Shown here in pieces: positions 28,369 through 59,478 of a stretch of 64,000 nt of DNA (within the stretch, counting starts at the first letter, position 1; every line of letters begins with the position of its first letter). The position numbers and the translations under genes are program-made. The notes beneath the pieces are model-generated. The model saw nothing but the letters and a program-made list of their open reading frames with translations, was not told the DNA's origin and searched no databases. The DNA is from Candidatus Eiseniibacteriota bacterium (lineage in GTDB: Bacteria > Eisenbacteria > RBG-16-71-46 > CAVPCR01): contig CAVPCR010000004.1 in the NCBI GenBank assembly GCA_963702435.1, positions 384,001 through 448,000 on the forward strand, in the 5' to 3' direction.

Positions 28369-28403
28369 AGGGATAGGAGTTTCCATTCGTCGCTGCGCCG
28401 GGC
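28369..28403 (-). mobile_element. Degenerate oriIS-like terminus of the IS91/ISCR-like element
   Basis: Reverse complement cccggcgcagcgacgaatggaaactcctatccct closely matches 30470-30503. Confidence 0.75.
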
Positions 28404-28490
28404 GGGGGCTTCGCCTGAGAAGTGCGCGGATGGAGAGCGCCACAACCCCGCATGCGCCGCCTGATGGGCGACCGTGCCACCGGCCCAGCG

Positions 28491-28715
28491 ACCGGCTCTT
28501 TCGGCGATGAGGCTTCGGTGCTGCAGCCCGTCGCCGATATCTACATCCGCCTGATGCAGATGCCGGTGCTGCCCTATCTCGTGCTGGCCTGATCATCGGG
28601 TTCGGCCAGCTCGAGGCGGAGCAGGCACGGCGGTTCGCGAAGCGCGCACCAGCGCTCCTGCTCCTGACCTTGGGGCTGACCTTCGCAGTCATCGTTGCCA
28701 TGCCTGTGTTGAAGG
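28491..28715 (+). pseudogene. Frameshifted N-terminal fragment of a dicarboxylate/amino acid:cation symporter
   Basis: 'FGDEASVLQPVADIYIRLMQMPVLPYLVLA' then a frameshift to 'LIIGFGQLEAEQARR...VIVAMP'. Confidence 0.6.
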
Positions 28716-28816
28716 CCGGGGTCATGGCAGCCGGCGGGCTGTAGGGAGGCAAGGCGAGCTCCCGAGGCCTCGTGCCTGAGGAGCTGGGCGACAACTGCAG
28801 CTGAGTTGGGAGGTTT

Positions 28817-29100
28817 CATCGAGCCGCACGGCGTTGTGGACATGGAAGCCGGAGTAGGGCCAGGCGGGCATGGAGGCGGCCACGTCGTCGCTGAACAGTC
28901 CGCGCTGGACGAAGGCGCGGAGCACGGCCCGGCGGAAGGCCTCGGTCAGCACCGCGAGCGCGTGGGTGCCGAGCGGCACAAAGGTGCCGTCGAGGCGAAA
29001 GGCGCCGTCGGTAGCGAGCACGAGCAGGCGGGGGTGCCAGTTGGTGAGCGTGCCATGGGTCTGGATCGAGGAGATGACGCCGGGGACGGCGCCGTCCGCA
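28817..29100 (-). pseudogene. Diverged internal fragment of the IS91/ISCR-like transposase
   Basis: 'VPGVISSIQTHGTLTNWHPRLLVLATDGAF...SGFHVHNAVRLD' matches 52411-53862; HUH motif HPHLH decayed to HPRLL. Confidence 0.88.
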
Positions 29101-29358
29101 CCGAGAGTGGCCCGCCCGCTGGTGCCGATAGCGGGATAGAATGCCGCTCAGGCCCAAGGTGCGCTATCGGACCCCGTGTCGCGAGTGAAAATCGCGTAAC
29201 CTCCTGGAGAGGCGCCCTGCGGTGAGAAACCGCCGTCGCTCATGCCAGTGGTCTATCCCGGCTGAGGCGCCAGGTTGCTGTGACACGCGGCTGCCGCGGA
29301 GCCCGGTGCGGGAGCGGGGCGAACGGAGCGCGAGGTTCTGAGAGGGAGAGCGGAAAGG

Positions 29359-30270
29359 GTGATCGAGATCATGTCGCCGCGGGATGCGATCCAGTCCGAG
29401 TTCGCGCTCGGCGCGGCGGAGTCCGATCCGGGGCCGCCGCCGGCCTGGATCACCGAGCCCGCGAACGAGGAGGCGATCGCGAGCGCGCTCGCCGAGCTCG
29501 ATCCTGAGCAGCAGGCGGCGGTCACGCACGGCGAAGGGCCGCTCCTCATTGTCGCCGGCGCCGGCACCGGGAAGACGCGCGTCATTGCGCATCGCATCGC
29601 CTATCTCATCGCCGCCAGGAAGGCCGAGCCGTCCGAGATCCTCGCGCTCACCTTCACCGAGCGCGCCGCGGCGGAGATGGAGGCGCGGGTCGATCTCCTC
29701 GTCCCCTATGGCTACACGGACATGTGGATCTCGACCTTCCATGCCTTCGGCGACCGTATCTACCGCGAGTACGCGCTCGAGATGGGGCTCTCCGATGCGG
29801 CGGTCGTCCTGAACGAGGCGGAGCGGCTCGTCTTCTTCCGCGAGCGGCTCTTCCGCCTCCCGCTCCGGCGCTTGCTGCCGCTCGGAAACCCGGTGCGCCA
29901 CCTGGCGGCGCTCCTGCGCGTCGTCGCGCGGGCGAAGGACGAGGGGGTGACGCCCGAACGCTACGTCGAGCACGCGCGCATCGAGCTCGATGCAGCGGCG
30001 GCGGAGGCGGCGGCCGCCGCCGATGATCTCGACGCCGGCGCCCGCCTCGCCGCGGCGCGCCGACAGCTCGAGATCGCCGAGACCTACCGGGCCATGGACG
30101 AGGAGCTGCACGCGGCCGATCGCATCGACTTCGGCGATCAGCTCCTCCTCACGCTCCGCCTCCTCCGCGAGCAGGAGCACGTCCTCGCCCAGGTGCGCCG
30201 CCGCTTCCGCTAATCGCGGTCGCCGATCGCGTGCACGCCTTCGTCGATCACCTCGAGCTCCTGGTGGATG
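29359..30270 (+). pseudogene. Truncated UvrD/PcrA-type helicase
   Basis: 'AGAGTGKT', 'LTFTERAA.EM', 'STFHAF', 'IDFGD'. Stops at 'RRRFR*' just before the expected Walker B (VDEFQD). A short 'DRVHAFVDHLELLVDA' piece then runs into an element end. Confidence 0.85.
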
Positions 30271-30509
30271 CCGATCATCCTCGGCAGCGCGAGGGGAGAG
30301 GTGCGCCCAGCGGGGACCGGGGGTCGGTCCGCGGGACCGCCTCGCCGCGCGGCGGCCGTGGCCACCCCGCGCCAACACCACACGCTGACGCGCGGCCGCC
30401 GCTCACGCCACCGATTAGATGCGCCGCCGCCGCCGGTCACGCCGCTTCGCCCCCCGTTCCCCGCCTCCTCCCGGCGCCGCGACGAAAGGAAATTCCTATC
30501 CCTATCCCT
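30268..30509 (+). mobile_element. Transposase-less 3' end (oriIS region) of the IS91/ISCR-like element
   Basis: Diverged copy of the 3' non-coding region seen at 35750-36021, ending GACGAAAGGAAATTCCTATCCCT plus ATCCCT. Confidence 0.85.
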
Positions 30510-30514
30510 TCGAC

Positions 30515-31753
30515 TCACAGCACTCTCCACCAGGGTACGGCCAGCACGTCGGGAGCCAGCCACTCGATCGTCCTTCCCGTGTGCAGCACGAGCCCAGCGC
30601 GCGCCTTCTTGCCGTACTCTGCACGGAAGGTTCGCACATGGGCCGCGTCGCCGAGCCGGGGCCGGCCTGTCGCCTTGACCTCGACAGGCAACAAGCGCCC
30701 GCCCGCCTCGATCACGAAGTCCACCTCCTCGCCGACGCTCGTTCGCCAGTAGAAGACATCGGCTCGCTCCAGGCGCGCGTCCCGCCACGCCAGAAGATCG
30801 TGAAGGACGATGTTCTCGAGATGGGGGCCGCCGGGCTCGGCGCCCCCCCCGAGATGCAGCGCCACTCCCGTGTCACCCCAGTAGAGCTTCGGAGACTTGA
30901 TGAGCCGCTTGGTGCGATTCACCGCGTACGCGGGCACCCGCACCAGCAGGTAAGAAGTCTCGAGGAGATTCAAGTAGCGGTGCACGGTCGGCTGGGGCAG
31001 CGCGACATCTCGGCCTAGTTCCGTCTGGTTGACGAGCTGGCCCAGCCGCTGGCCGGCCGCGCGCATGAGGCGGCGGAAGTCCGGCAGTGCCGCGACCGCG
31101 GAGAGATCCGGCAAGTCGCGCTCGAGGTAGGTGCGAACGTAGCCGTCGAACCACACCGCCCGCTGCCGGTCCGTCTTCAGGTGAACGGCCGGCGTCGGAA
31201 AGCCGCCGCGGCGCGCCAGGGCACGCCAGTCCTCCGGCTCGTCGGGCTCTGCCGACATGAGGTCGAGCCATTGCTCGTCACGGGCGGCAAGCAACTCGTC
31301 CCAGAGCCCGCAGCGGCCGAGCCCGCGCTGCTCCCGGCGCGTCATCGGCCACAGGGTGAGATAGCTCGCTCGACCGGCCAGCGACTCGGAAACCCGGCGC
31401 ATCAGGAGTAGATTGGCCGACCCGGTGAGCAGAAAATGCCCCGGCCGCCGGCGGCGGTCGATCGCCCGCTTGACGGCGCGCAAGAGATCCGGCTCGCGTT
31501 GCACCTCGTCGAGCGTGACCGGCTGCGGACCGCCGAGAAGCACCTCGGGATCGCGCCGTGCCGCATCGACCGTATCCAGATCGTCGAGGGAAAGGTAACG
31601 CCTCCCCGCCGGGGCGAGATCCTGCACCAAGGTGCTCTTCCCGGTCTGGCGGGCGCCGGTCACTACGACAGCGGGCATGGTGCTGAGGCATTCGTCGAGA
31701 CTGCGGCCGACAAGCCGCGGAAGGGTGGCATCCATGCCGCGAATGATAATCAT
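30515..31753 (-). CDS. AAA_14 / DUF4143 ATP-binding protein
   Basis: 'GARQTGKS', 'LDEVQR', 'LTGSA', 'ESLAGR', 'GGFP', 'TYLERD', 'KSPKLY', 'EVDFVIE...VEVK'. ATG 31735 is an alternative start. Confidence 0.9.
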   Translation of the reverse strand: MIIIRGMDATLPRLVGRSLDECLSTMPAVVVTGARQTGKSTLVQDLAPAGRRYLSLDDLDTVDAARRDPEVLLGGPQPVTLDEVQREPDLLRAVKRAIDRRRRPGHFLLTGSANLLLMRRVSESLAGRASYLTLWPMTRREQRGLGRCGLWDELLAARDEQWLDLMSAEPDEPEDWRALARRGGFPTPAVHLKTDRQRAVWFDGYVRTYLERDLPDLSAVAALPDFRRLMRAAGQRLGQLVNQTELGRDVALPQPTVHRYLNLLETSYLLVRVPAYAVNRTKRLIKSPKLYWGDTGVALHLGGGAEPGGPHLENIVLHDLLAWRDARLERADVFYWRTSVGEEVDFVIEAGGRLLPVEVKATGRPRLGDAAHVRTFRAEYGKKARAGLVLHTGRTIEWLAPDVLAVPWWRVL

Positions 31754-31912
31754 TCACGCTGTGAATAGACAAGGGCCAAGCGGGATCCCGGGCGGGCGGC
31801 GTCCGCGGCCGGCCCGCGGGAGCCACGGGCCGGGGGCTCGCTCCTTCTGTGTCGCCCAGCCATTCCTTCCGCACCGCGGCCTGGATCCCGGCGTGGGCGT
31901 CGGAGATGCACA

Positions 31913-32011
31913 AGGGATAGGAATCTCCTTTCGTCAATAGCCCGGGAGGAGGAGGAGAACGGGGAGCCAAGCCGCGCGCGCGACCGACCGGGAGGCGTCC
32001 GCGGCGTGGCG
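31913..32011 (-). mobile_element. 99-bp terminal (oriIS) piece of the IS91/ISCR-like element, inverted
   Basis: Reverse complement matches the last about 99 bp before 36021, ending ctattgacgaaaggagattcctatccct. Confidence 0.88.
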
Positions 32012-32019
32012 GCGGCAGC

Positions 32020-32583: not shown

Positions 32584-33444
32584 GTCAGCTCCCCCAGGGA
32601 CCATTGTCGGATGCACAAAGCACCTCGGAGAGGGCCTTTTTGCAATCGTTATCGCGATTCAGCCTTGACCTGCCGGCGGGCGAAATGCGGTGGCTGCGCG
32701 GTTGCGCGCCGAGGTCCAAGGGGCTCAAGCGCCCTGAGTTCGGCGTTCGGCGGCGAGGTTGCCCTTCAAGCGACGGCCGCCTCTCCCACCGGGAGCCGTC
32801 AACCCGGCGTCACAAGGAGGTCTCAGTTCATCGCGTGATTCGAACCTGCAACCGGTGCCGTCGCTTTGGGCAGCAAGCTCAGGGCGGGCACGAAGCCGCA
32901 GGTACCTCATGGCCCGAATCGCCGCCGGTTCGGTGAGGAAGTCCATGTGTGCTCCTCTCTGGCTGAAGAAGCAGGTGGGGACTGGCTCCGGCGGCTGGAA
33001 CGGGAGAGGCGTCATAGGCCCTGCCGAAGCTAGTGACCACGACGCCTTTCGCGATGCAGCCGGGACGCCGTCTGGCGGCAGCGCTTCTTCTTTGGCCGTC
33101 GTGTCTACCGCTGACGCTGCTGTACGGCTCCCGTACCCGCCCCGCCTCGCAGACCGGCACATATGGCTCCCCATCTTGGACGGTGTGCGAACGATTCTCG
33201 TTCTTCGAGTCCCCCGGGTCATCCGGCCGGACCATCCGCCTCCCCCCGCGGCCGAGGGCCCCATCCATCCCGAGGCGACCAGGGAGATGGCATGGAGCAG
33301 GGCCGATCGGACGTGCTGCGTCCAGCTTCTCGGCAGCGCGACGCGGTGCGAGACGTGAGAGGACGTCATCCTGCGCTCCCGGTAACTCCGCTGCCGCTCT
33401 TCGCAGTGGACCCGCCGCCCGTGCCAAGGTAGAATCGGTTCCGC

Positions 33445-33921
33445 ATGGACTTCGGTGAAGCCAAACGAATCCTGGCCGCCTTCGAGCGAGAGGGAGTCCG
33501 TTACGTGCTCGTGGGCTCGATGGCCATGGCCGCGCAGGGGCTCATCCGAGCCACGCGGGACATGGACTTGTTCGTGGCTGCCGACCCGGAGAACATCGCC
33601 CGTCTCCGCTGTGCGCTCAAGACGCTCTTCCCTGAGGATCCCAATGTGGACCTGATCACGGCAGAGGACCTCGGGGGAAGCTATCCCGCGATCGAGTACA
33701 CACCACCTCATGGCCTCTACTCGCTCGACATCCTGACCCGGCTTGGCGAGGCGTTCCGGTTCGAGGACTTGGAGGCGGAGGCGATCGTCGTGGAGGGCAT
33801 CACGATCCGGGTTGCCACGCCGCGCACGCTTTACCGCATGAAGAGGGGGACGGCCCGGCCGCAGGACCGCATTGACGCCGCCGCTATCCGTGAACGATTC
33901 GATCTCCCGGAGGATGCCTGA
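33445..33921 (+). CDS. Pol-beta-like nucleotidyltransferase
   Basis: 'YVLVGSMAM...RATRDMDL' GS/DxD motif and 'MKRGTARPQDRID'. Confidence 0.8.
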   Translation: MDFGEAKRILAAFEREGVRYVLVGSMAMAAQGLIRATRDMDLFVAADPENIARLRCALKTLFPEDPNVDLITAEDLGGSYPAIEYTPPHGLYSLDILTRLGEAFRFEDLEAEAIVVEGITIRVATPRTLYRMKRGTARPQDRIDAAAIRERFDLPEDA

Positions 33922-34232
33922 TGGGAGTGCGGCGATACCGATCCGTGGAGGACATGCCCGCGGGCTCTCCCCGCCGCCCGCTGGATCCCGAGAACCTGGT
34001 GATTGCTTTCGGGCTCATGGATCTCGCGCACCGCATCGCCGCATTGTCATTCCCGCCCGGCATCAAGAAGTACCGCTCCCATGACGAAATGCTGCGCGCG
34101 CGCGAACGGTGGGCGGCGGCCGGGACCCACGGGTCACGCGACGGAGACGATTGCGGACTTCAAGGCCGCGGGGATCCGCACCTACATCCCCGAACCCAAA
34201 ACCCCCGGGGGCCGTCGCCGCTGGAAGGGTAA
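33921..34232 (+). CDS. Small protein coupled to the nucleotidyltransferase; 3' end probably replaced by an IS fragment
   Basis: TGATG overlap; internal repeat 'GVRRYRSVEDM' / 'GIKKYRSHDEM'. Confidence 0.6.
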   Translation: MGVRRYRSVEDMPAGSPRRPLDPENLVIAFGLMDLAHRIAALSFPPGIKKYRSHDEMLRARERWAAAGTHGSRDGDDCGLQGRGDPHLHPRTQNPRGPSPLEG

Positions 34233-34248
34233 ACCACCGGCCCCGTAG
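34125..34248 (+). pseudogene. Fragment of a DDE transposase (IS1182/IS5-like)
   Basis: 'GHATETIADFKAAGIRTYIPEPK...RRRWKGK' resembles the segment after the ADKGY motif. Confidence 0.45.
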
Positions 34249-34444
34249 TATCTGCCTGTGCCTCCCGAAAACTGTCTCTCTGTCCCTCCCGAAAACCCCG
34301 TAGCCGCCTGCCCCAATTGAGTATGCGCCCGCTCGGCCTCGCCGTCCTGCCGTTCTTCCCGTGCCGACCAGCGGAATCGGGTACTCCCTTGCGTCGTGGT
34401 AGTCTCCCTGCTCTCCCCGCAGGCCCGAGCGGTTGCCGCGACCC

Positions 34445-35749
34445 ATGACGCCTATCTTCGCCGCCCTCTTCGCGTTCCTCGGCGCCAGCCTTCGTTCCCG
34501 GGCCTCGATGCAGCTTGAGATCCTCGCGCTCCGGCATCAGTTGGCCGTCTGCCAGCGATCTCTGAAGCGACCGCGTCTCCGGCCCGCCGACCGCCTCCTC
34601 TGGCCCTGGCTCGCCCGCCTCTGGCCGCGCTGGCGAGAAGCCCTCATGATCGTTCAGCCGAGAACCGTCATCACCTGGCAACGGCGCCGCTTCCGCGAGC
34701 ACTGGACCCGTCTCTGCCGCTCGGGGAAACCTGGACGGCCGTTGGTAGCGAAAGAAGTGCGTGTTCTCATCCGGCGGCTGTCGGCCGCCAATCCACTCTG
34801 GGGAGCACCGAGGATTGTCGGCGAGCTCGCCAAGATCGGAATCGCCGTGACCAAGGCCACGGTCGAGAAGTACACGCTCGCCAACTGGCATCCCCACCTG
34901 CACGTGCTCGCCACCGACGGCGCCTTTCGGCCCGACGGCACGTTCGTGCCGCTCGGTGTTCACTCGCTCGCGGTGCTGACCGAGGCGTTCCGCCGCGCCG
35001 TGCTCCGCGCCTTCGTCCAGCGCGGCCTGTTCAGCGCCGAGGTGGCCGCCTCCATGCGCGCCTGGCCCCACTCCGGCTTCCATGTCCACAACGCCGTGCG
35101 GCTCGATGGGGATGACCTCGGCGGCCTCTTGCCGCTCGCTCGCTACGCAGCCCGCGCCCCCCTCGCCCTCACCCGCATCACCTACGACGCTGCAAAGCCG
35201 CAGGTCCTGGTTGCCTCCGACAAGGCCGAAGGGCCCACCGCCGGGACGCATGCCTTCGCTCCTCTCGACTTCCTTGCCCAGCTCCTCACCCACATCCCGC
35301 GCCAGGGCGAACACCTCGTGCGCTACTACGGCGCGTATGCGAGCCGCACCCGCGGCACCTGGCGCCGGCAAGGGATCGGCCCCTGGGTCGAGCGGCAGCG
35401 CGGCGAGGGGGACCAAGAGGACGAGCCACCGGGTGCACCCCGCGATGCCAACGCTGATCCTGGCGGTGACCCGGTGGTGCCACCTCCGGAACCGCTATCC
35501 CCATCGCGGGCCGCGCTCAGGAAGCGCTGGGCGGAACTCCTCCGTCGCCTCTACGAGGTCGATCCGCTGAGTTGCCCGCGGTGCGGGGGCGAGATGCGGA
35601 TCATCGCCTTCCTCCTCGATCCACCGGTGATCGACGCCATCCTCCGCCACCTCCGCCGCGCTGCCTACGACGCGCGGGCCGGCCCGTGGGCGGAGGTGGT
35701 TGGGAGCAATGCGGTGGCGGGGGACGCCGGCCCGGCGGGGTGCGGCTAG
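34445..35749 (+). CDS. Chimeric transposase: N-terminus of an integrase-core (rve)-type IS protein fused in frame to the IS91/ISCR HUH domain
   Basis: 'LEILALRHQL...IVQPRTVITW...GRP...NPLWGAPRIVGEL..IGI.V...TVEKY' joined at 34873 to 'TLANWHPHLHVLATDG'. Confidence 0.85.
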   Translation: MTPIFAALFAFLGASLRSRASMQLEILALRHQLAVCQRSLKRPRLRPADRLLWPWLARLWPRWREALMIVQPRTVITWQRRRFREHWTRLCRSGKPGRPLVAKEVRVLIRRLSAANPLWGAPRIVGELAKIGIAVTKATVEKYTLANWHPHLHVLATDGAFRPDGTFVPLGVHSLAVLTEAFRRAVLRAFVQRGLFSAEVAASMRAWPHSGFHVHNAVRLDGDDLGGLLPLARYAARAPLALTRITYDAAKPQVLVASDKAEGPTAGTHAFAPLDFLAQLLTHIPRQGEHLVRYYGAYASRTRGTWRRQGIGPWVERQRGEGDQEDEPPGAPRDANADPGGDPVVPPPEPLSPSRAALRKRWAELLRRLYEVDPLSCPRCGGEMRIIAFLLDPPVIDAILRHLRRAAYDARAGPWAEVVGSNAVAGDAGPAGCG

Positions 35750-36021
35750 CCCGGCCGGCCGCGGCCAGCGCGCGGTTTGGGGTGCTGCCGATCACCATCG
35801 GCAGCGCAAGGGGAGAGGTGCGCCCAGCCGCGACCGGGCGTCGGTCGGCGGGGCCGCATCGCGGTGCGGCGGCCGCGGCCACCCCGCGGCAACGTCGGGC
35901 CACGACGCGCAGTCGCCGGTCACGCCACGCCGCGGACGCCTCCCGGTCGGTCGCGCGCGCGGCTTGGCTCCCCCTTCTCCTCCTCCTCCCAGGCTATTGA
36001 CGAAAGGAAATTCCTATCCCT
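34873..36021 (+). mobile_element. 5'-truncated IS91/ISCR-like element, copy A
   Basis: Near-identical to 52986-54134; ends GACGAAAGGAAATTCCTATCCCT about 270 bp after the stop. Confidence 0.92.
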
Positions 36022-36022
36022 T

Positions 36023-36256
36023 GATCGGCTGTACGACGCTGAGGGCCAGAACGTCGGGTACTTTCGCGGTGATGTCGCGTATTCGCTTCAGGGAGATTAC
36101 CTCGGCGAGCTATACGACGACGAGCGCATCGGGAAGCGCACGACGCGCATGCAGAGCAGAGGAAGCGCGATGATGGGGCACGTCGGGATCGCCCTGATGA
36201 GGCAAGTCGGACGCGTCGGCCTGTCGGTTGCTGGGTGGTCAGACCCGGATTTCTAA
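36023..36256 (+). pseudogene. Small protein resembling the 4-fold beta-flower family, start removed by the element end
   Basis: 'DRLYDAEGQNVGYFRGDVAYSLQGDYLGEL...GWSDPDF*' begins right after the terminus with no start codon. Confidence 0.45.
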
Positions 36257-36310
36257 CCTCGAGGCAGCTCTGACGCGGGAGTTGGGGTAATGGAGTTGCG
36301 GAGGGACGCT

Positions 36311-37113: not shown

Positions 37114-38352
37114 TTACCTGAGGACAATGGCCTTATGGGTGAGGTCTCGGCCGGCGGCGTGGATGCGGTAGAAGTAGACGCCGGAGGAGACCGGTTGCCC
37201 GCCATCAGTGCGGCCGTCCCAGGTGGCGGCGTGCTCGCCGGGGTCTTCGAAACGGTCGACGAGCCGGCGGATGAGGCGACCACTGGGCGTGAGGACATCG
37301 AGAGTTACGTGCCCGCGAGTCGGGAGCTGGTAGGTGATGCGGGCAGATCCGGGCGAGGGGTTCGGCGCTATCCCGCGAAGCGCAAACGGTGGGGCCATCG
37401 GCACGTGATCCCGGACGGCGTAGACGAGTCCGAGACAGTTCGTGCCCTTGGGGACGCCGATGTCGAGAAAGATGTTCCCTGGTTCGTTCGCAAAGGGGTA
37501 CCCGAAGGTGTCCCATCCTTCGCAGAACTCAGAGAATTCATAGATGAAGTGCCCGCCGATCATGTAGTTGACCGAGACATCGGCGATCTCAGTTATCCCG
37601 GTATAGAAGGTGGTGCTGTTGTCGTCATCGTTATAGGCGTCGTGGTCGTTGGGAAGGTCGTAGATGTCCCAGAGGTGGGTGGCGACGGCACGCTCCGCCG
37701 ATTCCCCGCGCGGGTAAGGGGTGTTTCCGCCCCATTCGAGGTCGTAGGTCTCGGGCAGCGTGTCGTTGAGGGCACCGTTGTAGACGTAATCTTCGAACAG
37801 GAAATCGTTGGTGGCCCCGCACGGGTAGAACCACGCCCAGCCTTCACTGTACGCGCAGTATGGGTCGGTGACAGCCCCCCAGTGATGGCTGTTGCAGGGG
37901 GTGGTCGGCGGTGGGAGGGCCGCAAGGGTGTTCAACACGTGATGGGCATATTCATGGCCGATGATGTCGAAGTCCCACTCATCGAATCGAATGTCGCTTG
38001 GTGGATTGCTGTAGCCATCGAGGTGGATGATCGCATCTAGGCGTGTGTAGTAGGAGTATGTTTGTGGTAGCGTGCGGTCCCAAATGCACTGGACTGGCGG
38101 GGCAGTGTAACCGGTCGCCGTCTCGGTGAAGTGGGCGAGGTCGTAAAGGTCGTATGTGATGTTGAAAGCACCGCGCTCGGTGCCGGTATAGGTGAAGGCC
38201 CCATAGAGGCCTTCGAGATCGATGAAGTTGGCGTTGTTGACGTACCGGGCCGCAAGGGGAAGCCAGACGCCATATCCATAGAGGTAGTCGTCTTGATCGA
38301 CAACGGTCCGGTAGTCGACCAGGTCGGTGGTCCATGTCGGGATGAAGAGCTG
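37114..38352 (-). pseudogene. 3' part of a transposon-interrupted secreted zinc metalloprotease with FlgD-Ig tail
   Basis: The frame stays open upstream of the ORF-track start to 38352 and contains 'WDFDIIGHEYAHH' (HExxH), 'AYSEGWA' and C-terminal 'APNP...WDG...SGVYF'. Confidence 0.8.
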
Positions 38353-38407
38353 TGAGCGTGGGCGCGGTGTTTGATGGCATTTGAGTCACGCATGTCGAGG
38401 GGAGTGT

Positions 38408-40764: not shown

Positions 40765-40821
40765 CGCGTTCGCCTCCCTTTCGGGCGGCCGAGCCTGGCC
40801 GCCGTGATGTGGGAGCGGACG

Positions 40822-41466: not shown

Positions 41467-41632
41467 CCTCCTTCGTCTTTGCTGGACTGAAGGAGGAAAC
41501 CCCCTCGGGGCGCTTGAATCAAGCTCCTTGAGGGGGTTCTGCTTGCACTCCCTGATGGCGCCTCGGACGATTCCATCAGTGATCGTGATCCGAAACGCCG
41601 TCCCCGACCATCAACTTTCTTGCTTACGCTGA

Positions 41633-49413: not shown

Positions 49414-49846
49414 TGCTGTACGAGGACCGCACGAGTGTTTCGCCCGAGCAACCCGCCGCCATCGATGGCATCGCCACGGACATGTGCCCGCCCTACATCG
49501 AGTCGACCAAGGCGTAGGTGCCGGATCCCGCGAAGAAGAGCGTTCTGGCCATCGCGCGGGTACCGCAACCGGGCTCGGTTCCGCAACGCGATCCTCTTCC
49601 ATCCCGGAGACCTCGAGCTACATCCACGCCCCGCGGAAGTCATCCGATGAACTCACCCGCACGAAAGCTGGAAGAGCCCCATTTAATGTCATCCTCGCAT
49701 GAGATTCACGCTCCTATCGCACGCCGCCGCTAGCGTCATTCCCGGCAAGCGGAGGTGCCCCGAGTCCGGATGCTCGCGGCCGCGCGAGGGCCAGGCTCTC
49801 GGCTCCGCCTCCATCATGAGCAGGAACGTGGACAAGGGGGTATGTG

Positions 49847-51871
49847 ATGATGCGGCACTGGTTCGGAACTGGTTGCGTATTCCTGGCCTTCATGCTGTCG
49901 TTCACCGGTCTGGCGCAGGCGCAGGTCAAGAACTTCATCGTCATGATCAGTGACGGGTGGGGAGAATCGCAGATCGACGCCACCGCCTACTGGAACGGCT
50001 CCAACCCGGTCTACGAGACCGAGCCCGGCTGGACCAAGATCGGGATGAGCAACTACATGTACCAGCTGGGTAACGAGAACCCGCCCTACGGCAATCCGGG
50101 TTTCATCGGCATCCATGGTTACGATCCCGACTCGGCGTGGGCCGACTGGATGTACATGCAGAACTACGCTACCGACTCCGCCGCCGCCGCAACGGCCATG
50201 TCATGCGGAGAGAAGTCATACAACGGCGGCATCGGCTACAACTGGAATCATGTCTCGCTGACGCACATGTTCGAGCATGCAGAAGCGGCCGGCCTCTCCA
50301 CGGGCGTCGTGACGACCGTGCCCCTGAGCCATGCCACCCCGGCGGCCTTCCGCGCGCACAACATCCACCGCAACAATTACGCCGAGATCGCGCGTGAGCT
50401 GTTCGCGTCTCCGCTCAAGGTCGTCATGGGCGGCGGCCACCCGAACTACGGCGAGAATGGCCAGTGGGAGCCGGGTAATCCCTCCGTTCCCGCCGACTGG
50501 CGGTACGTAGGCGGTTACGACCAGTGGAACGACCTCGTGGCGGGCGTCGGCGGCTGGACCCTCATCGAGGAGAGGGCCGACTTCGAGGCGCTGGCCAACG
50601 GCACTCTGGTCGTCGACCGCGTCGCCGGCATTCCGCAGGTGGCTCAAACCGTGCAATACAATCGCGCGGGCATGCCGCCCTTCAACAGCACGGAGCCGCC
50701 CTACACTGTGCCCTTCATCGCGAACGTGCCGACTCTCGAGACCATGACCAGGGGCGCCCTCAACGTCCTGGAGCAGAATCCGCTCGGCTTCGCCCTGATG
50801 ATCGAGGGCGGGGCCATCGACTGGGCCGGCCACGGGCGCACGCTCGGGCGGCTGATCGAGGAGCAGAACGACTTCGACGCCTCTGTCGCGGCCGTCGTCG
50901 ACTGGGTCGAGACCAACAGCAACTGGAACGAGACGATCCTCGTCGTCACCGGCGATCATGAGACCGGCTTCCTGTGGGGCCCGGGGATCGATCCCGCCAA
51001 CTCGAGCACGTGGTTCATCCCGGTCCAGGACAACGGTCCCAGCAGCATGCCCGGCTTCTACTTCTACAGCGCTCCTCGCGACAACTGGCAGAATCCGACC
51101 AACGAAGCCGGCCACACGAACCAGATCATCCCCTTCTACATGAAGGGCGCCGCTTCCGCCGTCCTCGTCGCCTACGCGGACGAGTTCGACATGCAGTGGG
51201 GCGCTCTCGGCGGCTATGACGGCCGCTATCTGGACAACACCGAGCTAGGCCTCGGGCTCATCTCCCTGGTCAACACCACGACCCCGGTCGAGCTCGCCTC
51301 CTTCGAGCTCACGAGCACGGATGGCGTCGTCTCGATCGCCTGGGAGACCTCGTTCGAGGATCGGAGCGCGGGCTTCAACATCCTGCGCGCGACGGAGGGT
51401 GCGGCCGCGGTGCAGGTGAACGACCAGACGATCCCGAGCCATGGCGGGAACGGCACGGCTCGCTACGAGTTCGTCGACCGCGCGGTCGCACGCGGCGCCA
51501 CCTACGAGTACACGCTCGAGTCGATCGACCTGAACGGCGCGACCGAGCGTCACTCGCTCGGCCTCGTGACCGTGGCGACCGGGTCTCCGATCCGCCAGCT
51601 CAGCCTGAGTCAGAACACGCCCAACCCGTTCAACCCGACGACCCTGATCTCCTTCGAGATGGCTGCCGCCGGGCACGCGAAGCTCGACATCTATGACGCC
51701 GCCGGGCACCTGATCCGCACCCTGGTCGACAGCGCTCTGCCCGCCGACCGGCACACAGTGGAATGGAACGGACTCGAGCAGAGCGGCCAGGCGGTCAATT
51801 CGGGGATCTACTTCTGCCGCCTCCAGGCGGGTAGCAGCACCCTGACCCGCAAGATGACGCTCATGAAGTAA
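49847..51871 (+). CDS. Alkaline phosphatase (PhoA family) with FlgD-Ig C-terminal domain
   Basis: 'MISDG', 'TDSAAAATA', 'HATPAAF', 'IEGGAIDWAGH', 'TGDHETG'; 'QNTPNPFNP'. Confidence 0.92.
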   Translation: MMRHWFGTGCVFLAFMLSFTGLAQAQVKNFIVMISDGWGESQIDATAYWNGSNPVYETEPGWTKIGMSNYMYQLGNENPPYGNPGFIGIHGYDPDSAWADWMYMQNYATDSAAAATAMSCGEKSYNGGIGYNWNHVSLTHMFEHAEAAGLSTGVVTTVPLSHATPAAFRAHNIHRNNYAEIARELFASPLKVVMGGGHPNYGENGQWEPGNPSVPADWRYVGGYDQWNDLVAGVGGWTLIEERADFEALANGTLVVDRVAGIPQVAQTVQYNRAGMPPFNSTEPPYTVPFIANVPTLETMTRGALNVLEQNPLGFALMIEGGAIDWAGHGRTLGRLIEEQNDFDASVAAVVDWVETNSNWNETILVVTGDHETGFLWGPGIDPANSSTWFIPVQDNGPSSMPGFYFYSAPRDNWQNPTNEAGHTNQIIPFYMKGAASAVLVAYADEFDMQWGALGGYDGRYLDNTELGLGLISLVNTTTPVELASFELTSTDGVVSIAWETSFEDRSAGFNILRATEGAAAVQVNDQTIPSHGGNGTARYEFVDRAVARGATYEYTLESIDLNGATERHSLGLVTVATGSPIRQLSLSQNTPNPFNPTTLISFEMAAAGHAKLDIYDAAGHLIRTLVDSALPADRHTVEWNGLEQSGQAVNSGIYFCRLQAGSSTLTRKMTLMK

Positions 51872-52190: not shown

Positions 52191-52410
52191 CACCGGGATC
52201 GAAGTGATAGTGACCGGGCAGGCGACCGCTGATCGCGCGCTGGTCGAGAAGGCCTATCGATTGCTCGTCGAGTTCCGGGACCGGGCCCCGGAGTCGTACC
52301 GCGGGAAGCTTCCGTGTACCTCGTTGCCGGGGGTTCGGCCGCTGACCCGGGGAAGCCGCTGACTCCCGCCCCGATAGTCCTGGCATCGATCGTGATCCGG
52401 TCCCGGGGGC

Positions 52411-53862
52411 GTGGTCGCATCTCTCGGCAACGACCCGAAGACGCGGGCCGCGGGCACCCGTCTGTCCGCTACCGGCGCCCGCACCGGTGTCTACCGGCCG
52501 CGCCGTCCCCAGGCCTCGCCGCTCTACCGGCTGATCGAGGAGCACTTCGAGCGGGTGGCCACGGCATGGGAGGAGCGCTACGAGCCGCGCTACGGTCGGT
52601 GGCGGCCGGTCATGCGCGCGGTGGTCGAGAAGTTTCTCGATTGCGGCTTGCTCGAGCCGGGCTTCGCGCGGGTGCGTTGCGGCGACTGCGGGGCCGAGTT
52701 CCTGCTTGCCTTCAGCTGCAAGTGCCGCTACTTCTGTCCGTCCTGCCACGCCAAGCGCCTGGCCCTCTGGTGCGACTGGCTCGAGCGCGAGCTCCTGCTG
52801 CCGATCCCGCATCGGCAGTACGTCTTCACCGTCCCCAAGCGCCTGCGACCCTACTTCCTCTACGACCGCCGTCTGCTCGGGCTGTTGAGCCGTGTCGCCT
52901 ACGACACCATGCGCGACTTCATGCGCGCCACCCTCGGCGCGGATGACGTCGTCCCCGGCGTCATCTCCTCGATCCAGACCCATGGCACGCTCGCCAACTG
53001 GCATCCCCACCTGCACGTGCTCGCCACCGACGGCGCCTTTCGGCCCGACGGCACGTTCGTGCCGCTCGGTGTTCACTCGCTCGCGGTGCTGACCGAGGCG
53101 TTCCGCCGCGCCGTGCTCCGCGCCTTCGTCCAGCGCGGCCTGTTCAGCGCCGAGGTGGCCGCCTCCATGCTCGCCTGGCCCCACTCCGGCTTCCATGTCC
53201 ACAACGCCGTGCGGCTCGATGGGGATGACCTCGGCGGCCTCTTGCCGCTCGCTCGCTACGCAGCCCGCGCCCCCCTCGCCCTCACCCGCCTCACCTACGA
53301 CGCTGCAAAGCCGCAGGTCTTCGTCATCTCCGACAAGGCCGAAGGGCCCACCGCCGGGACGCATGCCTTCGCTCCTCTCGACTTCCTTGCCCAGCTCCTC
53401 ACCCACATCCCGCGCCAGGGCGAACACCTCGTGCGCTACTACGGCGCGTATGCGAGCCGCACCCGCGGCACCTGGCGCCGGCAAGGGATCGGCCCCTGGG
53501 TCGAGCGGCAGCGCGGCGAGGGGGACCAAGAGGACGAGCCACCGGGTGCACCCCGCGATGCCAACGCTGATCCTGGCGGTGACCCGGTGGTGCCACCTCC
53601 GGAACCGCTATCCCCATCGCGGGCCGCGCTCAGGAAGCGCTGGGCGGAACTCCTCCGTCGCCTCTACGAGGTCGATCCGCTGAGTTGCCCGCGGTGCGGG
53701 GGCGAGATGCGGATCATCGCCTTCCTCCTCGATCCACCGGTGATCGACGCCATCCTCCGCCACCTCCGCCGCGCTGCCTACGACGCGCGGGCCGGCCCGT
53801 GGGCGGAGGTGGTTGGGAGCAATGCGGTGGCGGGGGACGCCGGCCCGGCGGGGTGCGGCTAG
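52411..53862 (+). CDS. Full-length IS91/ISCR-family HUH rolling-circle transposase
   Basis: Zn-binding 'CG..C...SCKCRYFCPSC', 'HRQYVFTVP', HUH 'WHPHLH', single Tyr 'LARYAARAP', 'HLVRYYG', C-terminal 'CPRCGGEM'. Confidence 0.95.
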   Translation: MVASLGNDPKTRAAGTRLSATGARTGVYRPRRPQASPLYRLIEEHFERVATAWEERYEPRYGRWRPVMRAVVEKFLDCGLLEPGFARVRCGDCGAEFLLAFSCKCRYFCPSCHAKRLALWCDWLERELLLPIPHRQYVFTVPKRLRPYFLYDRRLLGLLSRVAYDTMRDFMRATLGADDVVPGVISSIQTHGTLANWHPHLHVLATDGAFRPDGTFVPLGVHSLAVLTEAFRRAVLRAFVQRGLFSAEVAASMLAWPHSGFHVHNAVRLDGDDLGGLLPLARYAARAPLALTRLTYDAAKPQVFVISDKAEGPTAGTHAFAPLDFLAQLLTHIPRQGEHLVRYYGAYASRTRGTWRRQGIGPWVERQRGEGDQEDEPPGAPRDANADPGGDPVVPPPEPLSPSRAALRKRWAELLRRLYEVDPLSCPRCGGEMRIIAFLLDPPVIDAILRHLRRAAYDARAGPWAEVVGSNAVAGDAGPAGCG

Positions 53863-54134
53863 CCCGGCCGGCCGCGGCCAGCGCGCGGTTTGGGGTGCTG
53901 CCGATCACCATCGGCAGCGCGAGGGGAGAGGCGCGCCCAGCCGCGACCGGGCGTCGGTCGGCAGGGCCGCATCGCGGTGCGGCGGCCGCGGCCACCCCGC
54001 GGCAACGTCGGGCCACGACGCGCAGTCGCCGGTCACGCCACGCCGCGGACGCCTCCCGGTCGGTCGCGCGCGCGGCTTGGCTCCCCCTTCTCCTCCTCCT
54101 CCCAGGCTATTGACGAAAGGAAATCCCTATCCCT
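53863..54134 (+). mobile_element. 3' non-coding arm and oriIS-like terminus of the full-length copy C
   Basis: Same arm as the other copies; variant terminus GACGAAAGGAAATCCCTATCCCT. Confidence 0.9.
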
Positions 54135-54901
54135 AACAGGTCATGGAGACCTTCGGCCGCAACCTCGGCGTGAAGGTCGTGCACGTGGACGCTGCGGAGA
54201 ATTTCCTGGGCGAGCTTGCCGGCGTGGCCGATCCCGAGCAGAAGCGCCGCGTCATCGGGCGCATCTTCGTCGAGGTGTTCCAGCGCGAGGCGGCGAAGCT
54301 CCCCAAGGCGCGCTGGCTCGCGCAGGGCACCATCTACCCCGACGTCATCGAGTCGGCCGGCGGCAAGACCAAGAAGGCGCACACCATCAAGAGCCACCAC
54401 AACGTGGGCGGTCTCCCCGAGACGCTGAACCTCAAGCTGCTCGAGCCGCTGCGCGAGCTCTTCAAGGACGAGGTGCGGGAGCTGGGCATCGCGCTGGGCC
54501 TCGCGCACGAGATGGTCTACCGCCACCCGTTCCCGGGGCCGGGGCTGGGCGTGCGCATTTTGGGCGAGGTGAAGCGCGAGTACGCGGAGCTCCTGCGGCG
54601 CGCCGACGCGATCTTCATCGACGAGCTGCGCGCCGCCGACTGGTACGACAAGACCTCGCAGGCCTTCGCCGTGTTCCTGCCCGTGAAGTCCGTGGGCGTG
54701 ATGGGCGACGGGCGGACCTACGAGTACGTCGTCGCGCTGCGCGCCGTCCAGACGCAGGACTTCATGACCGCCCACTGGGCCGAGCTTCCCCACGCGCTGC
54801 TGGGCAAGGTCTCCAACCGCATCATCAACGAGGTGCGGGGCATCAACCGCGTCGTCTACGACATCTCCGGCAAGCCCCCCGCCACTATTGAGTGGGAGTA
54901 G
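54135..54901 (+). pseudogene. guaA: C-terminal half of GMP synthase, 5'-truncated by the element end
   Basis: 'DPEQKR..IG', '[11 protein letters not shown]', '[11 protein letters not shown]', 'HPFPGPGLG', 'KPPATIEWE*'. The GATase domain and PP-loop are missing. Confidence 0.93.
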
Positions 54902-55068
54902 GGGGTCTGCGCTCCTGATTGCGCGTCCACCGGGCGTGGTGCCGATCGCAATAGCCGCGATGCCGTTCCGTCCTGATTGGCAAGCGTCGTTGGCCCGTCG
55001 GGGGCGACCGGTGTCAGGAGGATCCTCACGCAGCTGGCGACCAGAGCTGCCTTGCCGATGGACCCTGC

Positions 55069-57876
55069 TCAGGCGCGTCTTCGATTGCGGATCAACTTCT
55101 CCACAGAGATCACCGGCAGGATGATCGCGCCGGCCAATGCGCTGAAGAGAAGCGACTGCACGGTCAGCGGGAAGGTGGAGAAGATCGCCTGCATCGGCGG
55201 GGCGTAGATGAACAGCGCTTGCAGGGCCAGGACCGCGGCGATGCCGATGAACACCGTCTTGTTGCTGAAGAAGCCGATTCTGAAGATCGAGTCCTTCAGC
55301 GAGCGGCAGCTCAGCATGTAGAAGACCTGGAACATGATCACCGTGGTGACCGCCATCGTCTGCGCCTCGCTCACGATCTGGGCTTCGGTCAGACCGGTGC
55401 TTGCGCGGGTGGCCATCTCCAGCTCGTACCTCCAGAGGAAGAGGCCCACGGCGCCGGCGGCCATGAGAGTGGCCGCCAGGAAGGTGCGGAACACCACGAA
55501 CTTGTTCAGCACCGGCTCCTTCGGGTCGCGCGGCGGGCGGTTCATCACGTCCGGCTCCTTCGCCTCGAAGGCAAGCGGCAGGGCGAGAGCCACGGCGGCG
55601 ACCAGGTTGATCCAGAGCAGCTGGGTCGGCAACATCGGCAGCAGCAGGTCCTTGACCACCTGGCCGTCGAAGGTCTTCTCGACCAGCGGGAAGAACGCGA
55701 CCGCATAGATCAGGATCAGCGCGAGGCCGAGGTTGGTGGGCAGTACGAACGCCAGCGACTTGATGAGGTTGTCGTAGACGCGGCGGCCTTCTTCCACCGC
55801 CGCGGCGATGGAGGCGAAGTTGTCGTCCGTGAGCACGATGTCGGCGGCTTCCTTGGAAACCGAGGTGCCGGTGATCCCCATCGCCACGCCGATGTTCGAC
55901 TGCTTGAGCGCGGGCGCGTCGTTCACCCCGTCGCCGGTCATCGCCGTCACCTGGCCGTTGTCTTGCAGGGCGCGCACGAGGCGCAGCTTGTGCTCGGGGG
56001 CCACGCGGGCGAAGACGTTGTGGTCCTTCACGATCTCGCGCATGGCGGTCTCGTCCATCTCGGCGAGCTGGACGCCGGTCACGGCCTTGGCGCCATGCTT
56101 GGCGATGCCCAGCTGTTCACCAATGGCCTGGGCGGTGCCCATGTGGTCGCCGGTGATCATCTTGACCGTGATGCCGGCCTGGTGGCAGGCGCGGATGGCG
56201 TCGATCACCTCGGTGCGCGGCGGGTCGATCATGGCCTGCAGGCCGGTGAACTCGAAGCCCTGGGCGCAGTCTTCCATGGTCAGTCCGGCGCGGTCGAACC
56301 GCTTCTCGGCAAAGCCGAGCACGCGCATGCCCTCGTTCGCGAACGCCTCCACGTGGTGGATCACCGTGTCCGGGTCCACGTTGCCGCAGCGCCTCAACAC
56401 CATCTCGGGCGCGCCCTTGATGATGATCTTCTGGCCCTCGGCGCCCCAGTCGTGCAGCGTGGCCATGAACTGGTTGGCGCTCTCGAACGGGATCGTGTCG
56501 AGGCGAGCGTGGCGCATGCGGGCGTTCGGGGTGTGGATGCCGAACTTCTCTCCAGCGGTCACGAGCGCGCCTTCGGTCGGGTCTCCGGTGATCTGCCAGC
56601 GGCCTTCCTTCTGCTCCAGGGTAGCGTCGCAGCAGAGGATGCCGGCCAGCAGCAGTTCGTGCACGTCGTTGGAGGTGGGGGTGAGGGGGTCGCCATCCTT
56701 CGACAGGCGGCCGACGGGCTCATAGCCCGCGCCCTCCACGCGGTACACGCCCGACCCCGGCAGATAGAGCGCCTGCACCGTCATCTCGTTGCGCGTGAGG
56801 GTGCCGGTCTTGTCCGAGCAGATCACGGTGGTGCTGCCCAGCGTCTCCACCGAAGGCAGCTTGCGCACCACGGCGCGACGGGCGGCCATGCGCTGCACGC
56901 CGATGGCCAGCGCGATGGTCACGATGGCGGGCAAGCCCTCGGGAATGGCGCCCACCGCCAGCGTGATGGCGAAGATGACCGATTCGCGCAGGCCGGTCAG
57001 CAGCTCCACGCCGCCTTCCAACATCGCCCGGGCCGTGCCCACGAAGAGGATCACCACCGAGATCACCGCGATACCGACGGTGAGCACGATGCCGATCTTG
57101 TGCAAGGCGATGCTCAGCGGGGTCTCCATCGCGGTGGCCTCGCCCAGCATCGCGTTGATGCGGCCGAGTTCGGTGCCGTTTCCGGTGGTGGTCACCATGC
57201 CCAGGCCCGTCCCGTAGGTCACCAGCGAGCCGCTGAACGCCATGTTCCTGCGGTCGCCCAGGCCGGCGTTCTCGGCCACGGGTTCGGTCATCTTCTCCAC
57301 CGGAACCGACTCGCCGGTCAGCGCCGCCTCCTCGATCTGCAGCGTGCGCAAGTGGAAGAGGCGCATGTCGGCGGGCACCTTGTCGCCGCTTTGCAGGAAC
57401 ACCACGTCGCCGCGCACCAGATCGGCCACCGGCAACTGCACGCGCTTGCCGTCGCGTTGAACGGTGGCGAACTCCGGCACCATCGCGCTCAGGCTTTCGA
57501 TCGCCTTGCTCGCCTTGTATTCCTGCGCGAAGCCGATGATCGTGTTGATGATCACCACCGCCAGGATCACGAGGCCGTTCTTGATGCCGTCGGCCGGGTC
57601 GACCAGCATCGCTATCACCGCGCTGCCGATCAGCACCCAGATCAGCGGGTTGTTGATCTGGCGCCAGATCAGCTCCATGACTGACGCACCGCCCTTCTTG
57701 TCCAGCACGTTGGGGCCGAACTGGGTCAGGCGCTTCTGGGCCTCGTCGTTGGCCAGTCCGTCCCGAGTCGCGCTCAGGGCGGACAGCACATCATCAGGCG
57801 TCTGGGCGTGCCACGGGCGGTTGGCCGCTCCCTGCGAGCGCTTGTCGAATGAATAGACCACTGCTTCGCTCCTCAA
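55069..57876 (-). CDS. Type II cation-transporting P-type ATPase (Ca2+/Mn2+-like)
   Basis: 'TGES', 'IPEGLP', 'DKTGTLT', 'KGAPE', 'TGD', 'GDGVND'. The start codon is uncertain by a few codons. Confidence 0.95.
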
Positions 57877-57917
57877 TGCGTCAACGCGACAGCGTTGGCG
57901 CGGGCGTCTACATGAGG

Positions 57918-58034
57918 TCGCGTTGGTCTTGCGTCGCCGCGTTCGCCTTCGGCGGGCGGCGTGCCCCGGGCGGATCCGTCTCCAGACCGTGTTGACGCCC
58001 GAAAGCCACTTGGGAGCTACTCCCCAGCACGTCC
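57918..58034 (-). ncRNA. yybP-ykoY (Mn2+) riboswitch
   Basis: The minus strand reads TGGGGAGTAGC...GCGTCAACAC...GCAAGACC, the conserved yybP-ykoY blocks in order, directly upstream of the P-type ATPase. Confidence 0.8.
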
Positions 58035-58186
58035 TATCGAAAGCACATGATACCTGTTAGAGGCCAAGCAATACGGGCTCATCTCGTCGCGGCAATTACG
58101 ACTTCAACGACGATCCGGGCCATCCGAAGTGGGTCATCCGAGCGGGTCAGTGAATCCTACGGCGCGGATCCAAGCGCGAAGATGTT

Positions 58187-59478
58187 CCTACTTCCTCTAC
58201 GACCGCCGTCTGCTCGGGCTGTTGAGCCGTGTCGCCTACGACACCCTGCGCGACTTCATGCGCGCCACCCTCGGCGCGGATGACGTCGTCCCCGGCGTCA
58301 TCTCCTCGATCCAGACCCATGGCACGCTCGCCAACTGGCATCCCCACCTGCACGTGCTCGCCACCGACGGCGCCTTTCGGCCCGACGGCACGTTCGTGCC
58401 GCTCGGTGTTCACTCGCTCGCGGTGCTGACCGAGGCGTTCCGCCGCGCCGTGCTCCGCGCCTTCGTCCAGCGCGGCCTGTTCAGCGCCGAGGTGGCCGCC
58501 TCCATGCGCGCCTGGCCCCACTCCGGCTTCCATGTCCACAACGCCGTGCGGCTCGATGGGGATGACCTCGGCGGCCTCTTGCCGCTCGCTCGCTACGCAG
58601 CCCGCGCCCCCCTCGCCCTCACCCGCATCACCTACGACGCTGCAAAGCCGCAGGTCCTGGTTGCCTCCGACAAGGCCGAAGGGCCCACCGCCGGGACGCA
58701 TGCCTTCGCTCCTCTCGACTTCCTTGCCCAGCTCCTCACCCACATCCCGCGCCAGGGCGAACACCTCGTGCGCTACTACGGCGCGTATGCGAGCCGCACC
58801 CGCGGCACCTGGCGCCGGCAAGGGATCGGCCCCTGGGTCGAGCGGCAGCGCGGCGAGGGGGACCAAGAGGACGAGCCACCGGGTGCACCCCGCGATGCCA
58901 ACGCTGATCCTGGCGGTGACCCGGTGGTGCCACCTCCGGAACCGCTATCCCCATCGCGGGCCGCGCTCAGGAAGCGCTGGGCGGAACTCCTCCGTCGCCT
59001 CTACGAGGTCGATCCGCTGAGTTGCCCGCGGTGCGGGGGCGAGATGCGGATCATCGCCTTCCTCCTCGATCCACCGGTGATCGACGCCATCCTCCGCCAC
59101 CTCCGCCGCGCTGCCTACGACGCGCGGGCCGGCCCGTGGGCGGAGGTGGTTGGGAGCAATGCGGTGGCGGGGGACGCCGGCCCGGCGGGGTGCGGCTAGC
59201 CCGGCCGGCCGCGGCCAGCGCGCGGTTGGGGGTGCTGCCGATCACCATCGGCAGCGCGAGGGGAGAGGCGCGCCCAGCCGCGACCGGGCGTCGGTCGGCA
59301 GGGCCGCATCGCGGTGCGGCGGCCGCGGCCACCCCGCGGCAACGTCGGGCCACGACGCGCAGTCGCCGGTCACGCCACGCCGCGGACGCCTCCCGGTCGG
59401 TCGCGCGCGCGGCTTGGCTCCCCCTTCTCCTCCTCCTCCCAGGCTATTGACGAAAGGAAATTCCTATCCCTTATCCCT
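58187..59478 (+). mobile_element. 5'-truncated IS91/ISCR-like copy D ending (TATCCCT)x2
   Basis: Matches copy C from 'YFLYDRR' onward; lacks the Zn-binding N-terminus. Confidence 0.92.

Follow-up and report, generated by a model that had tools for sequence, protein, structure and literature searches.

The window considered here, a stretch of 64,000 nucleotides from a Candidatus Eiseniibacteriota bacterium (GCA_963702435.1, contig CAVPCR010000004.1, positions 384,001 to 448,000, forward strand), contains an array of mostly truncated copies of an insertion sequence of the IS91 family, with eight oriIS-like origin ends and with unrelated genes and gene pieces between them. This array is non-random and has likely grown at its own origin end, which offers a testable clue to DNA capture in the IS91/ISCR family. 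It is moderately probable that this ISCR-type array, in a variable island beside uvrD, grows at the oriIS nick, with circles recombining into resident copies.

The Element and Its Transposase

The longest copy of the element carries an intact transposase gene:

52309..54134, plus strand: longest element copy (1826 bp), with the origin ending 272 bp after the transposase stop codon
52411..53862, plus strand: IS91-family transposase of 483 amino acids, with a Zn-binding domain, the HUH motif (H200, H202) and a single conserved tyrosine, Tyr283, in a YxxR motif

Profile search recovers the domains PF04986 (Y2_Tnp) and PF14319 (Zn-binding) in this protein, which scores 161.7 bits against NF033538 (IS91; cut-off 125) and 141.6 bits against NF052416 (ISCR clade Ia; cut-off 925), and hence is not a member of the latter clade. 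H200 and H202 are invariant across six aligned sequences, and the catalytic tyrosine stands in the context Y283-A-A-R-A, the same single-tyrosine pattern as in ISPps1. Identity to the ISPps1 transposase is 33%, identity to plasmid records is below 60% for all of the best 5000, and the end motif of the element is near-identical to the ISPps1 origin on pADP-1. Elements of the ISCR group have one tyrosine and no fixed target. ISCR traits are assigned to the present element because it has one catalytic tyrosine, no target tetranucleotide and an ISPps1-like origin, and on sequence criteria it is a new ISCR-like member of the IS91 family. For IS91, IS801 and IS1294 a tetranucleotide target, CTTG/GTTC, adjoining oriIS is outlined in PMC13181058, and for IS91 two catalytic tyrosines, Y249/Y253, in a YxxxY motif are outlined in PMC5714925. 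Like these elements, the present one has an HUH transposase above the NF033538 cut-off and an origin downstream of the transposase gene; unlike them, it has one tyrosine in place of the YxxxY pair of IS91 sensu stricto, and neither tetranucleotide was found beside the origin at its 11 own ends or at 33 ends from other genomes and metagenomes, where the flanks vary freely.

A second intact transposase, also an open frame of 483 amino acids and 98% identical at the protein level, lies at C4:467284-468732, about 24 kb beyond the last end of the array, with its own origin 12 bp short. A search for terIS located no definite one; the window copy and this twin diverge at 52309, as do contigs of the metagenome runs X1 and X2. 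A palindrome (z -2.4) that precedes the twin is found again at 29113-29167 and on contig C1. This 53-bp stretch stands 5' of element pieces at all three places (window 29113-29167, C1:1217315-1217367 and C4:468865-468917), is absent before uvrD in the same-genus genome G001, and had no close match in 205 other genomes. It is a candidate terIS, in which case the C1 copy would be a ter-plus-ori miniature element. No target-site duplication was seen at the flanks, in a set without clean insertions. The last 100 and 150 nt of the fixed end fold no better than shuffled sequences (z -0.57 and -0.09), and the end is not CTRR. Near-identical pieces of the element occur in sediment and soil metagenome runs (20 matches listed, from 10 studies; contigs of six runs compared). 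JGI metagenomes gave three short matching contigs, which say nothing about arrays, and viral contigs gave 0 matches to the origin motif.

Origin Ends and Their Clustering

The eight ends lie at 28369 (minus), 30503 (plus), 31913 (minus), 36021, 44293, 44724, 54134 and 59471 (the last five plus). The 23-nt end motif is exact at five of them and carries one or two substitutions at the remaining three, and no further end motif occurs in the 64-kb window at up to six substitutions. Homology to the element on the 5' side extends, in coordinate order, for about 34-35, 235, 99, 1149, 1255, 431, 1826 and 1285 bp, the 1255 bp at 44293 comprising 1149 bp of element and 106 bp of flank. Besides the longest copy, the pieces of the element in the window are as follows:

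28369..28403, minus strand: origin end of about 34-35 bp, diverged and B-like
28817..29115, minus strand: internal piece of the transposase gene without an origin, B-like (identity 91% with the main copy and 94% with one on C1)
30269..30509, plus strand: B-type origin end of 235 bp (77% to the main type), then a 6-nt tandem copy of its end
31913..32011, minus strand: origin end of 99 bp, main type
34873..36021, plus strand: 5'-truncated copy with origin, 1149 bp
43039..44293, plus strand: copy of 34767-36021, with 106 bp of integrase flank and 1149 bp of element with origin
44294..44738, plus strand: truncated copy of 431 bp fused directly to the preceding origin and followed by two tandem repeats of its end, 7 nt each
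58187..59478, plus strand: truncated copy of 1285 bp with origin, followed by a single 7-nt tandem repeat of its end

The origin end is retained in eight of the nine element pieces. All units of the array share the same origin nucleotide as one end, while the other end lies anywhere from 6 bp to beyond the element, and no motif common to six truncation points was seen. The source genome (G000; metagenome-assembled, 4.98 Mb in six contigs, 85% complete, 4.2% contamination) holds 11 motif ends, comprising the eight of the window and three inside 39 kb of contig C1. None of 200,000 random placements brought eight of 11 ends as close together as the 31.1 kb observed (approximate P 5e-13).

The eight ends of the original prediction are all present where it had placed them, on the strands it had given, and mapping their motif genome-wide confirms that they cluster strongly. 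Its description of an IS91/ISCR HUH element, with oriIS downstream of the transposase gene, clustered in a variable island among foreign and cut cargo, also holds; its single autonomous element does not. The 5' ends had been called all different, yet the copies ending at 36021 and 44293 share the same element breakpoint and the same 106 bp of flank. Nor is a single element involved, as the 30503 end belongs to a diverged subtype (B-type) with just 77% identity to the main one. The 28369 end and the internal piece 28817-29115, the latter missing from the earlier account, resemble diverged copies on C1. The one autonomous transposase becomes two with the second open copy at C4:467284-468732.

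The Same Architecture in Relatives and on Plasmids

Among relatives, G001 has 10 ends of other IS91 elements at three places, G003 has 22 ends, 15 of these in three clusters, and G060 has six co-oriented ends in 25 kb. On pIAE1, a closed plasmid of the cultured bacterium Trichlorobacter lovleyi IAE, 18 co-oriented ends occupy 89 kb (146 kb examined), and pADP-1 carries three (49 kb examined). Since three relatives and pIAE1 show the same architecture with IS91 elements of other kinds, it is a behaviour of the family. In five further genomes the ends are mostly scattered, with one cluster of four in 13 kb on mixed strands, and arrays are therefore not universal; PF04986 occurs in 47 of 151 genomes of the phylum, most of them too fragmented for arrays to be judged. 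Neighbouring ends within 20 kb are co-oriented in 41 of 46 pairs (five sources, stutter copies merged), and in 37 of 38 pairs outside G000.

The shared DNA of pIAE1 is a nested upstream flank (1.8-3.4 kb), its origin-side cargo is nearly all unique, and flank and origin alleles are reassorted; the plasmid is a cultured model for the mechanism discussed below. Its array (NZ_CP058410.1:162369-251351), for which literature listings gave no published description, adjoins a class 1 integron and has a reductive dehalogenase gene, gmk, nadD, galE, selA, tatC, cbiB and shc between its ends. In G001, a 243-bp end of the present element lies within about 4 nt after the origin of a different IS91 element, a juxtaposition which hints that origins may serve other elements as landing sites.

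Tandem Self-Copies at the Origin

Immediately after several of the origins stand tandem copies of the same end, here termed stutter, which the original prediction did not mention. This is the case for five of the 11 ends in G000, with copies of 6, 431, 7+7, 7 and 7+6 nt; the end at 54134 has none. The chance of the four short cases is about 1e-12. In G003, where the end sequence is different, stutter follows six of 19 listed ends, in up to five units, with one additional case of 33 bp. On pIAE1 it is present at three of 15 sites (22, 28+12 and 37 bp). Three of 46 plasmid records, picked for odd match lengths, were inspected for ISPps1, and pBHB (42 bp) and pMSHV show stutter, the third record none. 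The stutter pattern is matched in two of 206 genomes of the phylum, G000 and G001.

The duplicates vary in their left edge, whereas on the right they always stop at the origin. This constant stop, together with a unit that is in each case the element's own end, argues against target preference or slippage. A target preference for the heptamer was rejected, as 0 of 33 scattered ends carry stutter and multiples occur. One G003 flank is found both with and without a 6-nt unit, with 364 of 364 nt identical, and units are therefore gained or lost in place. No description of origin-anchored duplicates as a mechanism was found in a literature search that lay outside the main ISCR reviews and supplements, so that novelty is provisional. 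The stutter series is, provisionally, the fresh and testable part of the analysis, and an earlier description in the ISCR literature is possible.

The Locus and Its Cargo

A comparison of the locus with a relative, as proposed in the original prediction, shows a variable island. G001 holds 3.2 kb between a DUF4010 gene and uvrD where G000 has about 60 kb, and the G000 contig (759 kb) is syntenic with G001 on both sides of the island. A deleted uvrD fragment marks the left edge in G000 and an intact uvrD the right; the 3.2-kb segment of G001 was not found in G000, which is 85% complete. Between and beyond the origin ends lie the following:

29113..30271, plus strand: upstream part of uvrD and a 5' fragment of the gene, internally deleted, in the uvrD position of G001
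30515..31753, minus strand: AAA_14/DUF4143 ATPase gene between two inward-facing origin ends
33164..34289, no strand assigned: nucleotidyltransferase-like gene with its neighbour, matched at 98.5% identity by a stretch of G001's IS91 array
34433..35749, plus strand: in-frame fusion open reading frame (ORF) of 438 amino acids, an N-terminal part joined with 2-bp microhomology to the HUH/Tyr core of an IS91 transposase, without the Zn domain
36022..36257, plus strand: small open frame without a start codon that reaches the origin junction, likely a cut gene
38348..41633, minus strand: unrelated DDE insertion element (rve transposase and AAA ATPase) nested in cargo, with a 99.9% copy on C1
44731..47820, minus strand: alpha-amylase-family gene cut at the origin junction, and an MGH1-like glycoside hydrolase in two ORFs
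49844..51871, plus strand: alkaline phosphatase with a FlgD-type tail
54135..54901, plus strand: C-terminal half of guaA, cut at the origin
55069..57876, minus strand: intact P-type cation ATPase
59603..60775, plus strand: AAA_14/DUF4143 ATPase gene beyond the last origin

The coding part of the uvrD fragment is 94% identical to the intact gene about 56 kb downstream, and since its codon changes are mostly synonymous (31 versus 11 non-synonymous) it is likely an allele from a related strain. Core genes of G000 and G001 share 73-84% identity, against 98.5% for the 1.1-kb cargo segment. The guaA half is 96% identical in amino acids to an unnamed protein, 90-93% to hits that are mostly named Rhodocyclaceae/Betaproteobacteria, and 64% to the host GuaA, which suggests a segment of betaproteobacterial type as read from this one assembly. 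The donor taxonomy put forward for checking in the original prediction could be addressed for guaA; comparison of the P-type ATPase sequence assigned it to no donor taxon. The N-terminal part of the fusion ORF, which looks like a DDE integrase, gave no family hit, and the exact fusion sequence had no match in the protein collection searched. The integrase|element junction also occurs in a sample of another study, and the fusion ORF therefore circulates.

Left and right flanks do not rejoin in any of the three copies in which a clean insertion could be tested (uvrD, integrase and guaA flanks). The integrase|element junction is bridged by a 612-bp contig of metagenome run X2, and the uvrD|end junction, at the 30269 end, is carried by a contig of run X3. 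No origin-side junction was bridged by short-read contigs of the compared runs, which is not counted as evidence against these junctions. The recurrence of two junctions in independent metagenomes, and the occurrence of this architecture and of stutter on closed plasmids from cultured bacteria, speak against an assembly artefact.

Several further observations concern the island and its surroundings. The presumed left end of the integrase element, at 34259-34300, consists of two tandem copies. The 3.3-kb DDE element at 38348-41633, made up of a small ORF with the rve transposase and AAA ATPase genes, appears to interrupt a cargo ORF and has 74% copies on C4 and C5. AAA_14/DUF4143-type ATPase genes adjoin element pieces three times (30515-31753, 59603-60775 and G000 C5:670765-672254, the last judged by eye). 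Short repeats at 33123-33390 and 60861-60970, possibly the ends of another mobile element, have many partial matches in variable regions of G001 (C3:577-657 kb, C2:669-716 kb). Additional IS91 remnants lie near the host's own guaA (G000 C2:108-126 kb), and a large PKD-repeat protein with a FlgD-type tail is encoded at window positions 20-5887, outside the island.

Proposed Mechanism of Array Growth

According to the IS91 model as outlined in PMC5714925, the transposase nicks at oriIS and stays on the 5' end, while the 3'-OH of the flank primes displacement synthesis. An element that has a single tyrosine and lacks a target sequence, such as the present one, would have its bound end joined to whichever 3'-OH is near. 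Attack by the nascent-strand 3'-OH on the enzyme-bound end after n nt would yield stutter, a short tandem duplicate, and foreign DNA serving as the 3'-OH donor would yield an origin|cargo joint with the cargo cut at the origin; on the far side, microhomology of 0-3 nt would link the cargo to a partial copy. In a second step, cargo between two origins would leave as a circle, which could enter other resident copies by recombination or by insertion at the origin, giving the co-oriented mosaic arrays common to several species. Either of the two intact transposase genes would act in trans on the truncated copies. Read-through of terIS may also occur; here it would explain just the short shared upstream flanks.

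Growth on the origin side is supported by the stutters, by unique cargo cut at the origin, namely the guaA half and the alpha-amylase-family gene, by flanks that fail to rejoin and by the co-orientation of neighbouring ends. The element copies are mosaics of single-nucleotide polymorphisms (SNPs), and SNP patterns led to the rejection of pure in-place duplication for the long copies. As these are mosaic and often nearest to distant copies, they likely arrived as circles, recombining with or inserting at resident origins, which matches the circle-plus-recombination model for multicopy ISCR1 as summarised in PMC7707992. A more general proposal, which we advance tentatively and at less than even confidence, is that ISCR-type transposases are origin-anchored capture enzymes that join a resident origin to any free 3'-OH, be it that of their own nascent strand or of incoming DNA. 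They would assemble polar arrays, similar to those of integrons, at a fixed landing site with no need of an earlier insertion in the donor, and stutters would be the zero-cargo products.

A number of observations weigh against growth at the origin nick. The 106-bp shared flank of 43039-44293 fits ordinary one-ended transposition. Between the 431-bp copy and its neighbour, 23 of 431 positions differ, against 12 of 422 between it and the distant twin, and the 59471 copy is nearer to that at 36021 (4/1149) than to that at 54134 (10/1285). Long copies are not simple duplicates of their present neighbours, and in-place duplication is therefore shown for the short stutters only. Stutter is patchy, being absent from the 33 scattered ends, from eight G001-type ends and from the three on pADP-1, as well as from 21 ends of five further genomes, some of which are included in the 33. 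G000 is the least co-oriented set (4 of 8 pairs), and the array sets were chosen for having several hits, with kin among them not independent. Finally, all of the evidence comes from assembled contigs.

Alternative Explanations

The most serious alternative is the Helitron-like scheme of the original prediction, classical one-ended transposition, in which upstream cargo and element are carried together by missing terIS and deposited here with no special origin chemistry. One-ended transposition is documented at 1-14% in the account given by PMC13181058, and it predicts an upstream flank such as the 106 bp of the 43039-44293 copy; the recurrence of both tested 5'-side junctions in other samples and the nested upstream flanks of pIAE1 are also in its favour. 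On its own, however, it yields neither tandem self-copies of 6-42 bp nor breakpoints inside the element, nor units that land exactly on an earlier origin, as at 44293|44294 and at the G001 end within about 4 nt of another origin, and it is contradicted by unique cargo outside the origin. We regard it as rather improbable as an explanation of the whole array. Missing terIS thus remains a route for a ter-less copy moved with 106 bp of upstream flank and is not the main cargo route, because unique cargo adjoins and is cut at the origin side, as in ISCR1, and because the tandem self-copies are beyond ter read-through.

It is unlikely that the locus is an insertion-sequence graveyard, a dispensable island in which independent insertions or local hopping were trimmed by deletions, with origins kept by chance or as deletion endpoints. 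Other mobile debris is indeed present (the DDE element, an integrase fragment and short repeats), as are two subtypes and two orientations, with the low co-orientation of G000 at 4 of 8. Yet the 3' end is kept in eight of nine window pieces, copies that are 99% identical are nevertheless truncated, left and right flanks do not rejoin, and neither the stutters nor the 37 of 38 co-oriented pairs outside G000 are explained. An assembly chimera, in which repeats joined DNA of several organisms, would be in keeping with the completeness (85%) and contamination (4.2%) of the genome, with the segment bearing betaproteobacterial guaA, and with origin-side junctions that no independent contig bridges. 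It is very improbable in view of the two junctions that recur in runs X2 and X3, the synteny of the 759-kb contig with G001 on both sides, breakpoints that differ among copies, and the presence of this architecture, stutter included, on closed plasmids from cultured isolates.

Relation to Known Systems

Among the closest parallels are the ISCR8/ISPps1 arrays of the catabolic plasmids pADP-1, pMSHV and pBHB, which share a near-identical origin motif, the YxxR motif, co-oriented copies with different origin-side cargo and, in two records, stutter. Here, in contrast, the transposase is 33% identical, the array lies in a chromosomal island and not on a plasmid, most copies are truncated, and the cargo has no evident common selective theme. 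In ISCR1, diverse genes directly follow oriIS (as outlined in PMC13393415), and its multicopy arrays are explained by circles and homologous recombination (Toleman's model, given in summary in PMC7707992). Complex class 1 integrons with ISCR1 thus resemble the present array in both respects, but no integron integrase (intI1) or 3' conserved segment of a class 1 integron was found here among the 59 window ORFs scanned, of 241 listed, the repeated part begins inside the element, and the NF052416 score is far below its cut-off. For ISCR28, cargo is captured between two sequential oriIS, one of them a remnant (Yuan et al., 2024, as cited in PMC12772301), which is also the arrangement here; as far as that citation describes it, the ISCR28 remnant lies upstream and one gene is enclosed, whereas here there are up to eight ends and the longest copy is usually first.

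Helitrons likewise combine HUH rolling-circle chemistry, a fixed origin with a loose far end, non-autonomous copies and gene fragments (as outlined in PMC4778049), all of which the array shares or, for the rolling-circle chemistry, would share. Membership of that group, as opposed to analogy, is contradicted by the lack of a helicase domain in the 483-amino-acid protein and of a terminator hairpin, the nearby UvrD piece being a fragment of a host gene. Helitrons also take up DNA from beyond their terminator. In the present array most unique cargo is found outside the origin, with the 106-bp shared flank as the part that would fit read-through. In part the array behaves as a Helitron does, without being one. 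The view of the locus as a special platform is not upheld either, as the same architecture occurs elsewhere with other IS91 elements, and both the two-origin sandwich and multicopy ISCR structures are already published. The architecture is of a known kind in a new lineage, and the locus itself is not a new system.

Implications for the IS91/ISCR Family

ISCR elements spread resistance and xenobiotic-degradation genes, and their cargo lies after the origin, on the side not carried by textbook terIS read-through; the published explanation of this origin-side cargo is a multi-step model. The graded, origin-anchored duplicates (6 bp to more than 1 kb) found here, in relatives and on cultured plasmids would place the growth point at the nick and offer a cheap sequencing read-out for the mechanism. 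In uncultured bacteria of sediment or soil, such arrays exist with no antibiotic selection evident, and they acquire DNA across phyla. If ISCR-type transposases do prove to be origin-anchored capture enzymes, this would give a direct, one-step account of the origin-side cargo in ISCR1, ISCR8 and pIAE1.

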